DNA from: Eledone cirrhosa
Taxonomy: Eukaryota
DNA: 64,000 nt
Assembly (NCBI GenBank): GCA_964016885.1
Contig: OZ024754.1
Location: 33,480,001-33,544,000, forward strand
Reading direction: 5' to 3'
Translations under genes and position numbers: made by a program
Shown here: positions 421 to 34,671 of the stretch, piece after piece
How positions within the stretch are numbered: position 1 is the first letter of the stretch
Layout of the letters: each line of letters starts with the position of its first letter
Notes under the pieces: model-generated
Told to the model about the DNA's origin: nothing
Database searches by the model: none
What the model saw: the letters and a program-made list of their open reading frames with translations, nothing else

Positions 421-22393
<21,973 letters not shown>

Positions 22394-25622: not shown

Positions 25623-25636
25623 GTTGCTATAGTAAC
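25623..25636. promoter_or_regulatory. RFX X-box (GTTGCTATAGTAAC)
   Basis: Matches the GTYNCY-AT-RGNAAC consensus and lies about 50 bp from the first donor of a flagellar/ciliary gene. Confidence 0.7.
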
Positions 25637-26398: not shown

Positions 26399-26710
26399 TC
26401 CCGTCTAACCCATGCTAGCGTGGAAAATGGACGTTAAACGATGATGATGATGATGATGATGTATATATATATATATATATTTGTTTGTTTGTTTACTTTA
26501 TGCACCGAAAGTAAAATTGTGTATTGTGTTTATTCGAATAGGGCACTACAACGCTATTAGCTGTCAGTCAAAAGCAGCCGATGAAAGCAAAACATCGTTT
26601 ATTTCCGTATTACTACCACGCGTAAGTGGAGTTACTTGGTGGTAGTAATACAGAAATAAACGATGATGAATGACGTCACCTTCGTCTGCTTTCAAAACTG
26701 ACAGCTATAT

Positions 26711-26844
26711 ATCACGTGAAACAATCACATTATTCTTTCAAAAGAAAAAGTTTGGCGCCATTTTTCTCCAGGAATAACACATATGTCAACAAACACAGGA
26801 GAAAAGAAGAAATAATAAAAGCAAAAGATAAGAAAACGGTAAGT
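26711..26844 (+). promoter_or_regulatory. Promoter-like cassette with a splice donor inside the Merlin left end
   Basis: E-box CACGTG (26713-26718), overlapping E2F/YY1-like TTTGGCGCCATTTT (26751-26764) and donor ACG|GTAAGT at 26839. Confidence 0.4.
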
Positions 26845-29017
26845 AATATCAAATAATTATTAAAAACGTTACAGGAGTTGCATTACACGAATAATTAAGT
26901 TTCATACATACATATATATATGTGTGTATATATGTATAAAATAAATATGGTTTATAAATATAGTTTCCATTTATTAATATATTGTATATATATATATGTA
27001 TATATATGTATATGTATGTATGTATATCAATTAGTAGTTCATTCACAGTAAAGCAGTCCTGATGTAAGGCAGTCCTGATGTAAGGCAGTCCTGATGTAAG
27101 GCAGTCATGAATGCAGCCATATAAAGCTGTTTGTTGGAAGACAGATATGCACCATCACTGTTGGTAGCTTCAATTTGTTGAACTGCTTCTTGAAAATTCT
27201 TTTGTTTTTTGGGGCAGACCAATTATGAGATATTTAATATCTCTGCACCTTGATACTGCTTTGTTTCATCTTCCGAACACAAACTTGGAGAATTACTATT
27301 AGGAAATGACAGTCCGTCCAACATTCTGCCCCTCTTATACAATGGATAGATCTGACATCACTCCAATCATTGCATCTTACAATCACATAGTTAATAATAT
27401 GCCAATGACATGAAAGTGGGTGCATCCAGGTCCCTTTCTACTTGTTCTTCTGCAAAAGAAGAAGTCCTTTGCTATTACACTTTCCCATTCCATGACAACC
27501 TATGCTACTCCATGTAGCATTCAAATCACCCAGCACTACACATTTCTAATTGCTATTTACATTTTTCAATACTACTTGCAGATCCACATAAAATTTATCT
27601 ATTCCTTCTGAGGCATTTACAAGAAACAAATGAAGTGTACACACTGACTGACCAAAATCATAAAGTGGTTAAAGTGGAGTGGCAACATAAGTGTCATGGT
27701 TTGATCAGAGATACCATGCACATACAAATATATGTGTGTGTATGTAGTAGAAATAAAAGAAATCTTTTGTACAAAAAATATATATATATATGGCACATGG
27801 CTTAGTGGTTAGAGCATTGGCCTTGCAATCGAAAGGTTGTGAGTTCAATTCTCAGACCGGGTGATGTGTTGTTTCCTTGAGCAAGACACTTTATTTCACA
27901 TTGCTCCAGTTTACTCAGCTGTAGAAATGAGATGATAGGGACAGGGGTCCCTATCATTCCACTGCAAAGTGGTCGTGGAGGTGCCACGGCAAAAAAACAC
28001 CCAGCACTCACTGTAAATGAGGTTGGTGTTAGGAAGGGCATCCAGCTGTAGAAATCAAGCCAGAATCAGTTCCCGTCCCACCCTTGCAAGCAGGGAAAAG
28101 CGGACGTAAAATGAAATGAAATGAAATGAATATGATAAATGATGGGAATGACTTTTCTGATTCTTATTCTTTAGTGATATAATTATCACAAAAGTTATTC
28201 TTATATATATGTATATGTATCATCATCATCGTTTAACTTCTATCTTCCATGCTAGCATAGGTTTAGAATGGGTATCATCATCATCATCATCGTTTAACGT
28301 GCATCTTCCGCACTTGCATGGGTTTGGACGGGAGTTTTCCCATTTGAGGCAAGATTGGTTGTCTTGCTCGTATGGGACAGTCTGGCGGGTTTTCTATATA
28401 TATATGTATATATATGTATGGGTTTAGCATAGGTATATATATATATCATCATCATCATCATCACCGTTTTACGTCTGTTCTTCCACGTTAGCATGGGTTA
28501 GATGGGTTGTCCTTTTGTGAGCAGTGTCCAGTCGGCTGACCTTGTCTTGCTCATACAGGAACTGATTCTGGCTTGATTTCTGCGGCTGGATGCTCTTCCT
28601 AACACCATCCTCGTTGCGGTGAGTGCTGGGTGCTTTTTTCTGTGGCGCCGACACGTCCACTTTACAGTGTGGGCTGGGTGCTTTTTTGCCATGGCACCTC
28701 CATGACCACTTTGCAGTGGGAGGGTGTGGGGGAATATTGCCTATATGCTTCAGCTTCGGCTTGTTCCTGTGGGGGGGGGGGGTCTTCTGTATTACTGCGT
28801 GACACCAGAGGTCACGGTCATGTGTCATTGCTCTTGAGAGGTGCAATTGGTTACGGTCGGCCTTTATCACCTCATCCCAGGTCCTCTTGGGTCTCCCCAC
28901 TCCGCAGCTTCCATCGTGTATATGTATGCATATGTATATATGTAGTATATATATGTGTGTGTATGTTTATATATATATAATGTTTATATATATATATAAT
29001 GTTTATATTTATTTATT

Positions 29018-30180
29018 AAAATAACAGATTAAAGTTTAAGCAAAGAATCGCTGCTTTCACCCTTAACGGGATCTTCTGAAACTAACAAAGTCAATCTGTA
29101 AACGCAGAACTGGATATTTCAAAAAACGTTGCAACCGGAGGAAGACAGGAAGACAATACTTTGGTTCATGGTGACGTTCGCTGGCAAAGAACGGGAAAAA
29201 ACGAATAATACGTCATTAATAGGAGCGGTGAAAGACAATTACGTGCAAGGACAGAACCACGTTTATGGTATAAAAGAGGTCGTAGACTAATGTTCTCTAA
29301 GTGGTGCATAGAGACGTCCTCTGGCAATGAACGAAAAAACGAAGATAATAAGTCATATGTGGAGCGTGGAGAACAATAGCGTGCAAAGACAAAACCACGT
29401 AAATGGTATAGCAGAAGTCGTAGACTAAAATTCTAACTAGGAGACCGAATGAATCTCCGCTACAGAGTTAAGAACAAAGTAAATAAATACAATACAGAAG
29501 TAATAGGAACAAATAAATACATACACGCAAACAGATACGTACATACACAAGCATACGCAAAACCTTACCATAGGTATACAAAACCACGCACATATAAATA
29601 TGTGTATGTGTGTATGTTTGTGTACAAATAAATAAATAATTATATAAACGTATATAAGTAAATAAATACGTATATAACAAGCGCACACACATACCTACAA
29701 ATAAATACATGAAGGTTCGGAGACGTAAGTCAACTAAAACAAGAAGTTCACATATACACACGCCCACCATACGTACGAGCCTGCATACTCACGCAGACGC
29801 AAAACTCCCATATACACATAACCAAGCCCTAAATACCAGAATATGTAAAAAATTATACGCCAAAACAGTCAAATATACGTACGAGAAGGTATACATACCT
29901 TCACAAAACATACGGGTAATATATACTTACCTATGAAAATAAGTAAAGGAATAAACAAAACATATACTTAGCTCCCACATCAAGACGTAAAAATCCACGT
30001 ATAGATCGTGCTATCCGTTAGGGTATAACGTAGGGCTGTAATACAGGAAAGTTTTGTGCAATTTATGTTTACAAGCCGAAATTGCCTCAGATTTTTTGTT
30101 TAAGATGTGGTCTGTGGCGTAGAGTATTTCCAGGGCCTCAGCGGCGCAGAGGTCACATGGTCTTTTATTTCCGTTATATG
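29018..30180 (-). mobile_element. 5'-truncated Penelope-like retroelement (GIY-YIG C-terminus, 3' UTR and pLTR with hammerhead)
   Basis: The minus strand of 30178-30011 reads YNGNKRPCDLCAAEALEILYATDHILNKKSEAISACKHKLHK...*, the CxxC..E..I..LNKxxE..CxH tail of Penelope endonucleases. It is flanked by TA-rich microsatellite, with a hammerhead fold at 29024-29099. Confidence 0.75.
29024..29099 (-). ncRNA. Variant type I hammerhead ribozyme (core CAGAAGA)
   Basis: Minus strand: AGTTT-CAGAAGA-T-CCC GTTAA GGG-T-GAAA-GCA..TGC-TT-AAACT, with extended stem I ACAGATTGA/TTAATCTGT. There is a U4A change in the core. Confidence 0.6.
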
Positions 30181-30877
30181 ATCTATATATATATAATGTT
30201 TATATATATATAATGTTTATATATATATATAATGTTTATATATATATATGTGTGTGTGTGTTTATATATATATAATGTTTATATATATATGATGTTGACT
30301 TGTTCTTCTTTTTGGTAAATATCATCTTGGTTAAGAGAGTGGGACTGGCTTTGTGCAGTGCCTTTGCTCACTATAAAAGCTTCACGGCACAGGCATTGCT
30401 TTATATCTGGAGATCTCTCTGCACTTGTCCTCACATGGTACCATGGGCCCAGCACTATGTGTCAATAATTGTCACAAGTGTAGTGTTTGTACCAGAGTTT
30501 TCAAGTCGCTGGCTGGACTAAAAAGTCACACTCGTTCAGGGCATCGGTAGGGGTTCTCCTACATGGATATAAAGTAGTGACCGTACTCGAAAACGAGTTG
30601 GCAGCCACCATATATATATGTATGTAAAAAAAAAAATTTTCAGCAATTGTATTAAACTAAGATTTTATTGTTTTATATTTTGTATCTCGGCTCTGTAATA
30701 CATTTGAAAATTTACATTGTAAGTACCAGTAATACACTGGGTAATTGCTGCCTTGTGCCAAAGTAGAAACAATTATTATAATAAAACTCCGGATAAACAT
30801 AAACTGTTGAGTGTTTGTCATCTCTTATGAAAGAGTCGGCAGATTTTCAATCAACCAACTTTCCTTAGTTGAATAAA

Positions 30878-30925
<48 letters not shown>

Positions 30926-30984
30926 CGTATATTTTCTTTAATATTGCAACATTAAAGGAATATATCTAGTTTCTATATGTGTGA

Positions 30985-31019
<35 letters not shown>

Positions 31020-31356
31020 CATATTGAAAGCATTCTCACACCGGGTGATGTGTTGTTTCCTTGAGCAAGACACTTTATTTCACATTGCTCCAGTTTACTC
31101 AGCTGTAGAAATGAGATGATAGGACTGGGGTCCCTATCATTCCACTGCAAAGTGGTCGTGGGGTGCCACGGCAAAAAAGCACCCAGCCCACACTGTAAAG
31201 TGGATGTGGGGGTGCCACGGGAAAAAAGTACCCAGCACTCACTGTAAATGAGGTTGGTGTTAGGAAGGGCATCCAGCTGTAGAAATCAAGCCAGAATCAG
31301 TTCCCGTCCCACCCTTGCAAGCAGGGAAAAAGTGGACGTAAAATGATATGATGAAT

Positions 31357-31690
31357 GCTCCCAGCTGTGGTCACCCCCATAGTATCAAACTAACCATGGA
31401 GCTTGAAGCAATCCAATGAAGCTACACCAAGAAGGTTGCCACGATGGAGATAAACTACTGGGAGAGTCTAAAAGAACTGAAACTCCTCGGAATGAAGACG
31501 GGAGAGATATGCAATGTTATACATATGGAAAATCCTGGGGGGGACTAAGACCAAACTTTCGCATCGAGAGCTGGACCAATTCTCGAACAGGACGTCACTG
31601 TGTGGTACCAAAGGTCCCGTCTTCCACATCTAGAATCAGGAGCAGCTATTGCAATAGCCTGGGGTTCAAAGACCCTCAACTTGGTTTCCA
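31357..31690 (+). mobile_element. Decayed CR1/L2-like LINE 3' fragment nested in Merlin
   Basis: Frameshifted remnants such as QLWSPHSIKLTMELEAIQ and NYWESLKELKL are typical of post-RT C-termini. Confidence 0.45.
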
Positions 31691-32332
31691 AAATTTAAAT
31701 TTGTGTTTCCTATTCATCAATGCTTCAAGCAAGCTATAAAACTCTGTTATATTTCATCATCATCATTTTATGTCAGTTCTTCTACGCTAGCATGGGTTGT
31801 CCTGTTGTGGGCAGTGTCCGGTCGGCTGACCTTGTCTTGCTCATACGGGAACTGATTCTGTCTTGATTTCTACAGCTGGATACCTTTCCTAACACCAACC
31901 TCATTTACAGTGAGTGCTGGGTGTTTTTTGTTTTTTTGCCGTGGCACCTCCATGACCACTTTGCAGTGGAATGATAGGGACCCCAGTCCTATCATCTCAT
32001 TTCTACAGCTGAATAAACTGGAGCAATGTGAAATAAAGTGTCTTGCTCAAGGAAACAAGACACTTTTATATAGATCATATAAATCGAAGGTAAAGTTTCA
32101 GCGGCGGTTTTGTGCCCCTGATGAACCCTTTGATTAAAATGAAATATACTTATACAAGTACCCTAGGCAATGTAGTTTCAGAATATATATGGTTATGGGG
32201 GTTTATCTCCAAAACCATAGGAGAAGTTCGTAAAATCTTGTTCCATTTATTGGCCACACTTTTCACTATAGGGCGTTTAACCCCCATTAGGGTGTCTTAA
32301 TATTATTGAAATTTGCACACACACACGCACAC

Positions 32333-32478
32333 ATGAAAATATGTGACGTCATTCGTCAACCTTCCCCTACTTTCACTTCTGACAGCTAATACCATGAACT
32401 GTATTTTTACAGTTCATGGTATTAGCTGTCAGAAGTGAATTTAGGGGAAGGTTGACGAATGACGTCACATATTTTCAT
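32333..32478. repeat. 146-bp near-perfect palindrome inside the Merlin element
   Basis: 71-bp arms with about 2 mismatches around a TTTT loop. Confidence 0.9.
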
Positions 32479-32701
32479 AGTTATGGTTATCAATATAAAA
32501 AAACAAGTCATTTTCACCAACTGGAGTTAACTTAAATGAAAATATAGGTGGCCTTTAAAAGAGCCAAATTATGGTTATCAAAGCGACAGTCCCCATGGAG
32601 ACAATCCCCACCAATCAGTAACAATCATCACCAACACCACGTGTAAATAAATAAACTTTAATCTTCATTTTGTGATAATACACGCATCTGCAAGTTGAAA
32701 A

Positions 32702-33604
32702 ATGAGTTCTATAATATATCCAAGTGTTAAGGGAATTAACCATCGCGATCTTTCCATCGCTACCTCTACTACAGCAGATACCGTCAATTGGTTGAAAATT
32801 CAAGGACTTCTGAATACACAAAAGGTCTGCCCTTCATGTGGTCAACGTATGCTGGAAGTAGCGAAACAAAATGTGTCAGATGGGATTATCTGGTCATGTA
32901 AAAGACCATGTAGAAAACAGGTTTCTATTAGAAAAGGCACATTTTTAGAAAATAGCAATTTTAAGTGTGAACAAATAGTTGATATATTATATTTGGGGGC
33001 AAAAGAAGATTTAGCCAAGAAGATTTCAGAGGAATGTCGTATCGCGAATGTGGCCGTAGCAGATTGGCAAAATTTTTGCCGTGATGTATGTGCAGAATAC
33101 TATGTGGCACAAAACATTAAGCTTGGCGGGCCAAACCGAATTGTCGAGATTGATGAAAGCGCATTCGTGAGAAGGAAATACCATTGTGGCCATTCTGTGA
33201 AAACACAGTGTGTTTTGGGAGCTTTGGAAAGAAGTACCAGAAGATGTATTTTAGTAGCAGTAGAAGACAGGACAGCGGAGACACTTTTAACCATTATACA
33301 GGATTGTATATTGCCAGGGACAACCATAATATCTGATCTATGGCGTTCCTATAATACGATCGATCAGGTAGGCTATCAACATTTGACGGTGAACCATTCG
33401 ATCAATTTTGTTGATCCAGTAACATTTGCCACAACGAATCACATAGAATGCTTGTGGAAACACGTAAAAAATAGGAATAAAAGGGAAAACGGGACAGCCA
33501 GAAATTTGCTTCAAACCCATCTTATTGAATTCATGTGGCGGTATGAATTTAAAGGAGAAATTTTCCAAAAGTTATTAGAACATATCCGTCATCTGATTCC
33601 ATGA
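32702..33604 (+). CDS. Merlin/ISXO2-like DDE transposase, 300 aa
   Basis: N-terminal Zn finger CPSC...CKRPC, SIRKGTF, then GGPNRIVEIDES..RRKY, IISDLWRSY, HLTVNHSINFVDP, TNHIECLW, HLIEFMWR (IS1595-family catalytic D-D-E). No stops or frameshifts. Confidence 0.92.
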   Translation: MSSIIYPSVKGINHRDLSIATSTTADTVNWLKIQGLLNTQKVCPSCGQRMLEVAKQNVSDGIIWSCKRPCRKQVSIRKGTFLENSNFKCEQIVDILYLGAKEDLAKKISEECRIANVAVADWQNFCRDVCAEYYVAQNIKLGGPNRIVEIDESAFVRRKYHCGHSVKTQCVLGALERSTRRCILVAVEDRTAETLLTIIQDCILPGTTIISDLWRSYNTIDQVGYQHLTVNHSINFVDPVTFATTNHIECLWKHVKNRNKRENGTARNLLQTHLIEFMWRYEFKGEIFQKLLEHIRHLIP

Positions 33605-34671
33605 TTTTGAATAAGGTTGGTGAAAAAAATGTTTCTAAACATGCTTTTGAATAAGGTTGGTGAATAATGAAAATATAAATGAATAAATCAAATTTATTTG
33701 ATAACCATGACTTGTTTTCTAATTAACTTGAATTTGTTTTCTAATTTGGCCCTTTTAAGGGCCACCTATATTTTCATTTAAGTAACTCCACTTACATCGA
33801 TATGCTTTATAACCATGACTTGTTTTCTATTTGTTTTCTAATTTGGCCCTTTTAAGTCTTCCCTCTCTCTCTCTCTCTTTCCTCTCACTCCCCCCCCCCC
33901 TCTCTCTCTCTCTCCAAAAAACGCGTGAAAACTCCACTTACGCGTGGCAGTAATACGGAAATAAACGATGTTTGACGAGTGACGTCACCTTCACCTGTTT
34001 CCATCGGCTGCTTGGACTGACAGCTCATAGCGTTGTAGTGCCTTCGAATAGTTTAATTTTATTCATAGTTGTATAAATAACATTACAAATCGTTTGTAAT
34101 TCTTTCAGAATGAAAATATAAACAGAGCATATAAATAAATTTACAGTAGAATAACATAACAAATATGTTTTAAATATATACATAAATAACATTACAAATG
34201 CTTAGACAACATTATAAATTGCTCGCGATTTTTCAGAAAGATATATTCCTTTAATGTTACAATATTAAAGAAAATGTAAAGGAAGGGGTGAACAACGGAG
34301 CCAACACCAGAGCAAAAGACAGCATCGCGAGGAGTACTGGGCAACCTCTCAACGGTATATATCGAAATATACCCATATTATATGGGCCTTGTATCGGGGG
34401 GGGGGGGTACCAGGGACAATCCCCCCCACCTCCCACACACACACACTTTTTCAAACGTCTGCATTTTATTTTTTGTTTATTTGATATAATAAATTCTTTT
34501 TAAGTTTATTTTTTTTATATCTGAACTTCATTTGAATATTTTGAATATATAAAATTTAATTAGCGTAAAATTTTACTTATGTGATAGGGTCCGGGAAAGG
34601 GACCATAAGCAATTTATGCACCTAATGTTGGTTTGTCCCCCTCACATTTTTAAGGCAAACGAGGCCCCTGC

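Follow-up and report, generated by a model that had tools for sequence, protein, structure and literature searches.

An internally deleted, likely dead Merlin transposon in Eledone cirrhosa, assigned to a giant and probably composite Merlin family

The window element

A DNA transposon occupies positions 26533..34051 of the window (the whole 64,000-nt stretch of Eledone cirrhosa DNA analyzed here; GenBank assembly GCA_964016885.1, contig OZ024754.1, positions 33,480,001 to 33,544,000, forward strand). Its parts, in window coordinates, are listed below (TSD, target-site duplication; TIR, terminal inverted repeat).

26533..26541, + strand: left TSD, 9 bp against a family norm of 8 bp
26542..26633, + strand: left outer TIR, 5'-GG start (TIR-to-TIR alignment)
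26639..26709, - strand: inner right-type TIR without its terminal 13 nt (alignment; same in sister copies)
26710..27027, + strand: family left arm, a promoter/first-exon-like cassette with an intron-like tail (92 genome matches to a 25-mer)
27030..27720, - strand: decayed RTE-LINE endonuclease fragment (blastx E 2.7e-21)
27783..28130, + strand: high-copy insertion, presumably SINE-like (many window matches; absent from the three block relatives described below)
29016..30180, - strand: presumably Penelope-like fragment (absent from the sole block relative spanning the site)
30289..30610, + strand: LINE 3' piece (at the same site in some sister copies)
30610..30966, + strand: family backbone left of a deletion, junction at about 30966
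30967..32062, + strand: family backbone right of the deletion, with SINE-like and LINE debris as inherited cargo (88-91%, collinear in sister giants)
32075..32330, + strand: remnant of the family 159-bp tandem repeat
32333..32478, no strand: palindrome with 71-nt arms, from an older compact-family TIR without its first 8 nt
32702..33604, + strand: Merlin/IS1595-type transposase open reading frame (ORF), 300 aa (Pfam DDE_Tnp_IS1595, E 6.9e-19)
33930..34042, - strand: right outer TIR (TIR-to-TIR alignment)
34043..34051, + strand: right TSD, 9 bp, TTCGAATAG

The sequence TTCGAATAG is found at 26533-26541 and 34043-34051 and nowhere else in the window, both times flush with the inverted ends. The outer TIRs begin GGCACTACAACGCTA (GGCAC start) and align over 92 nt on the left and 113 nt on the right, with one 22-nt indel; their terminal 26-mer is matched 506 times in the genome (control, 0). 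Merlin elements are recognized by TIRs of 24-462 bp with 5'-GG, a TSD of 8 or 9 bp, and a DDE_Tnp_IS1595 domain with D-D-E. The window element has all of these (TIRs of 92/113 nt; a TSD of 9 bp, with 8 bp at 23/29 of the giant pairs described below; the domain in its ORF product), and on them it is classed as a Merlin. A sequence-only reading had reported the identical 9-bp flanking repeat, GG-starting inverted termini of about 90/113 bp, the 300-aa DDE ORF, and Merlin/IS1595 membership, and these points hold. Its description of 26700-27720 as unique sequence does not: this part consists of the repeated left arm and the decayed endonuclease, and 26542-26900 matches the genome at 86-100% in 40/40 scored places.

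Relative to a 25-kb copy at C2:36.34 Mb, the window copy lacks ~19 kb of interior and retains ~4 kb of backbone, and its deletion-junction pattern is found once in the genome. We read it as an internally deleted derivative produced by a private deletion, ordinary and decaying. The left-arm cassette contains E-box-like and YY1-like motifs and a candidate GTAAGT donor-like site near 26840. The endonuclease fragment at 27030-27720 has three 94-98% matches elsewhere in the genome, and a block at 27080-29016 is also present at three other loci (89-98%); as these relatives have no Merlin end within 10-24 kb, the block may not be family cargo. Two pieces appear private to the window copy: that at 27783..28130, which we take to be a SINE from its anatomy rather than from a repeat library, and that at 29016..30180, which is Penelope-like and includes an endonuclease-like remnant at 30047-30163. 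Five paralogues of the high-copy right-flank repeat were compared, and none continues into the left flank, so they do not represent an empty site; no empty orthologous site was seen among the loci examined. The likeness of the right flank to giant interiors reflects a generic repeat (2713 candidates).

As for the surroundings, the element had been placed next to a ciliary gene promoter. A perfect motif at 25623-25636, 0.9 kb to the left, is X-box-like, and 14337-14792 (- strand) has a weak FSIP1-family exon match (E 2e-4, below cut-off); the two are faintly suggestive of such a promoter. A low-complexity frame at 42626-43366 (+ strand) has a weak phage-integrase-family match (E 1.4e-5, below cut-off) and may be what remains of a DIRS- or Crypton-like element. 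Between 37000 and 54000, GC skew and AT skew reach extremes over long stretches that are probably satellite arrays.

The giant family

A protein search of the same genome returned at least 136 transposase matches, many of them with 90-96% amino acid identity (131 of the 877 candidates were scored), and many left-arm matches sit 17-63 kb upstream of a transposase match in the same orientation. Three sets of end pairs were checked for TSDs. The first comprised seven left-arm/transposase regions, the seventh lacking its right end in the stretch taken; both TIRs and an 8-bp TSD (one with 1 mismatch) were present in 6/6 complete transposase-bearing copies, which span 17.2-27.0 kb. The second comprised previously untested, inward-facing TIR pairs 18-59 kb apart, taken from the first 100 of the 506 TIR matches and therefore mostly from contigs C1-C2; a perfect 8-bp TSD was found in 13/18, one pair being uninformative because it lies in a TA run, and cross-pairs used as a control matched over 8 bp in 11/462. 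In the third set, transposase-bearing pairs with both ends had a TSD in 4/5 (one with 1 mismatch), and six further candidates lacking one end in the stretch taken were left out of the count.

Pooled, end pairs 17-64 kb apart carry an 8-bp TSD in 23/29, and the units so delimited measure 17.2-48.2 kb (median, 27.0 kb); the 6/29 pairs without a matching duplication may reflect decay, mis-pairing, or rearrangement. In 6/6 giants the interior is collinear with 13-21 kb of a reference copy 22 kb long, and TSDs and flanks differ from locus to locus while the common interior stops at the TIRs. As in a macrotransposon, the two element ends have moved the enclosed DNA with one outer TSD. The idea that cargo traveled as one unit is supported for the family, by its TSDs and collinear interiors, and not for the 7.5-kb form, whose deletion junction occurs once; counting copies and comparing interiors and TSDs, as had been proposed, revealed a multicopy element whose real transposed unit is ~3x larger than 7.5 kb.

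Marker sequences gave 147 genome matches for an interior 26-mer (control, 0; some are tandem copies within elements) and 92 for a left-arm cassette 25-mer, from which we estimate about a hundred or more giants, or ~2.5-4 Mb. The transposase is absent from 6/6 additional complete giants, replaced by ~7 kb of other retroelement debris. These giants terminate in a small internal Merlin whose inner TIR is intact, and they are classed from their sequence as non-autonomous family members.

Several further observations concern the distribution and relatives of the family. The four largest contigs, C1-C4 (54% of the genome), hold 68/92 left-arm cassette matches (binomial p 1e-4, duplicated copies included), and giants may accumulate on very large chromosomes. 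Contig C211 has four near-identical left arms (115455, 284654, 417492, and 591936) spaced 130-175 kb apart, which suggests that they belong to a very large tandem array. Some transposase copies form inverted pairs that meet head to head at the truncated-TIR palindrome (L018/L019 at C1:45.54 Mb, L021/L028 at C28:102.76 Mb, L007, and L022); these are fold-back derivatives of the family. A second, distant Merlin lineage (33-39% amino acid identity) with many ~330-aa open frames is possibly younger (C11:53.55 Mb, C2:76.5 Mb, C12:9.0 Mb, and others).

Cargo

The giant interior includes a full-length RTE LINE with endonuclease and reverse transcriptase (RT) domains (1089-aa frame in the majority sequence). 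Its 3' junction is identical in six giants and its 5' junction in seven, and such common junctions indicate one retrotransposition followed by multiplication by the DNA transposon. The remaining cargo is LINE, Penelope-like, and SINE-like debris, hexamer and pentamer repeats, the 159-bp tandem repeat, and the exon-like cassette. One giant (L078:6002-9586; C3:93.07 Mb) also has a nested Ty3/gypsy-like retrotransposon with protease and RT domains.

No intact host gene was found in the cargo; a scan of a few cargo ORFs brought up no host-gene family, and the ORFs listed from giants include no viral genes. Nor was a parent or host donor locus found among the 20 cassette loci examined: 14/20 have a TIR within 7 kb, and the other 6, extended to 30-40 kb, are mostly decayed family copies or fragments. 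With no donor, and with 6/20 loci lacking a nearby intact TIR but looking like decayed copies, any order of events is tentative. A candidate donor at C5:12.48 Mb was rejected, being another giant; an older Pack-mariner origin of the cargo was likewise rejected, a mariner-like right end being present in 8 sequences and a left end in none.

Three acidic exon-like repeats in the cargo follow strong acceptor-like sites in a phase matching the left-arm donor-like site, and one of them contains the same stop in 13/13 copies. A spliced transcription unit within the giants is distinctly doubtful; in it, the cassette (ATG-G then GTAAGT) would be joined in phase to these repeats, or would be read across an intron of 20 kb as far as the transposase. 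Were it real, a captured promoter and gene fragment would have spread to about a hundred sites, and the cargo would be an intron tolerating unlimited insertion, which would explain how an element with a 300-aa transposase grew to 48 kb.

Origin of the family

We consider it probable that the window element, now likely dead, derives by internal deletion from giant (17-48 kb) Merlins that moved whole, and that the family is a composite of two small Merlins with lost inner ends. Two inner TIRs are truncated, 26639-26709 by its last 13 nt and the 32333-32478 palindrome by its first 8 nt; the sequence suggests that the former is the dead end of a tiny Merlin and the latter the dead inner left end of a transposase unit. 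The truncated-TIR palindrome lies upstream of the transposase at 19 of the 30 best loci, compact relatives 1.9-2.2 kb long that have TSDs of their own are present in the genome, and at one locus a Merlin end with an intact terminus stands immediately upstream of the cassette. Left-arm versus right-arm distances in 8 copies were near star-like and uninformative on co-descent.

Under the proposed mechanism, the 300-aa DDE transposase would pair the nearest intact ends. Once the inner ends of a tiny Merlin and of a compact autonomous Merlin had lost their terminal bases, the outer ends would be the sole usable pair, and everything between them would become one transposon. Copy number would then rise through ordinary cut-and-paste with gap repair, retroelements landing in a master copy would multiply as passengers, further nested Merlins would re-end the unit and create subtypes, and incomplete repair or later deletion would leave short derivatives such as the window copy.

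The main rival, which we judge unlikely, also has the unit moving whole and differs in how it grew, by accretion of LINEs, SINEs, repeats, and gap-filled host DNA inside one ordinary Merlin; the two truncated inner TIRs could then be nested insertions that arrived later, and not original ends. This accords with a cargo of mostly nested retroelement and simple-repeat sequence, with subtypes distinguished by nested Merlin pieces, and with the existence of zebrafish Merlins of 10-14 kb (from the part of the published record available). Against it, the sole transposase belongs to a 1.6-kb unit that itself carries a truncation at its left end, compact sister elements of similar size to that unit exist, and both truncated ends point inwards, just as they would in a composite. 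The composite origin is the simplest account.

Transposase and remaining alternatives

In the window ORF, D151, D212, and E249 are unchanged from the family majority (E152 is present in 91/91 and E249 in 87/88 homologues). Four N-terminal cysteines (residues 43-70; window 32828-32911) are kept and are conserved in most homologues; the region has a faint Zn_ribbon_IS1595 match (E 0.52), a domain missing from most Merlins according to the available portion of PMC8101967. Measured against the majority sequence of 26 close copies, the window ORF differs by 4 silent and 10 replacement substitutions (1.56%, similar to sister copies), the latter including W170C (W in 89/91 homologues), F172L (F in 84/91), L87F (L in 77/91), and W99G (aromatic in 87/89). 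Four DNA or unlabelled runs over 32070-33855 gave family variants only, and the letters at W170C, F172L, and W99G differ from those of other records. The nearest named proteins are ISXO2-like transposases of Octopus bimaculoides and O. sinensis (62-85%).

The ORF had been suggested to stay open through selection or domestication, here beside a host promoter, and an estimate of dN/dS had been proposed. The frame is indeed open, just a few of the 26 close copies are likewise free of both stops and frameshifts, and the X-box-like motif is 0.9 kb away; against this, pN/pS is 0.67 on 14 changes, divergence from the majority is that of the sisters (90-96% amino acid identity), and near-invariant W170 and F172 are replaced. 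A frame would remain open after 14 substitutions with a probability of about 0.49 (substitutions alone, indels excluded). A domesticated gene would be single copy, under purifying selection, and stripped of TIRs and TSD; here there are 136 matches, 4 silent against 10 replacement changes, and TIRs and TSD as intact as in a young insertion. Selection is not supported, and domestication is very improbable. The ORF is open yet seems to drift neutrally, its product is likely non-functional, and the element is not unique and, by these measures, not domesticated.

That two independent Merlins merely flank host DNA, or that the long copies are segmental duplications, is hardly credible, and for the family the TSD counts refute it: AT-rich 8-mers do match by chance (11/462), but 23/29 pairs match, and flanks differ at each locus with the common interior ending at the TIRs.

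Comparison and meaning

The giants share with the Merlin superfamily GG-starting TIRs, an 8-9 bp TSD, a single DDE_Tnp_IS1595 transposase, and internal tandem repeats (PMC8101967, in the text available), and differ in their size of 17-48 kb, inner dead ends, and large common cargo. They are far above the usual Merlin size: three curated mollusc Merlins average 1.6 kb (PMC10294476, available part), and Merlin repeat coordinates, which are not element lengths, reach 10.3 kb (Merlin-1_DR) and 13.7 kb (Merlin-2_DR) (PMC8101967 S1 Table, as excerpted). For O. vulgaris, the accessible part of PMC13282606 gives 2 recent Merlin families with 11 insertions totaling 29 kb and mentions neither cargo nor nesting. 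No report of Merlins this size was found in the literature searched, Repbase, Dfam, and subscription papers lying outside that search; the parts of PMC6431247 and PMC8277862 available do not mention Merlin.

There are parallels in other systems. In maize Ac/Ds macrotransposons, the outer ends of two elements move the enclosed DNA (10-28 kb; 8-bp TSD) and their number can rise (PMC9910405), but these are hAT elements seen as few events in genetic stocks, whereas the giants are a standing animal family, estimated at about a hundred copies or more, with truncated inner ends. A Drosophila composite element between foldback elements and bacterial composite transposons likewise mobilize DNA between two flanking elements (PMC6431247); in the giants, no selected gene cargo was found, and amplification is genome-wide. 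Pack-TIRs and Pack-MULEs hold non-transposase DNA between TIRs, multiplied by transposition, with a median cargo of 224 bp and only 4 multicopy cases among animal Pack-TIRs (PMC8277862), whereas giants span tens of kilobases in many copies, some with their own transposase, and had no parent among 20 loci. Teratorn, a piggyBac-herpesvirus fusion, is also a giant animal DDE element with internal TIRs (PMC6431247); the giants, unlike it, show no viral genes in the listed ORFs, their cargo being retroelement debris and low-complexity DNA. The family belongs to Merlin and works in the manner of Ac macrotransposons and bacterial composite transposons.

The interest of the locus rests on the giant family and not on the window copy. 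DNA transposition is described as falling steeply once cargo exceeds about 6 kb, and giant eukaryotic elements as mostly using viral, rolling-circle, or retro machinery (review PMC6431247, in the part available), and here a plain one-gene cut-and-paste element has brought units of 17-48 kb to roughly a hundred copies in an animal. The giants are a repeat class that standard annotation would split into unrelated SINE, LINE, and satellite pieces; they show LINEs multiplied by a DNA transposon and offer a natural test set for the size limits of TIR transposition.
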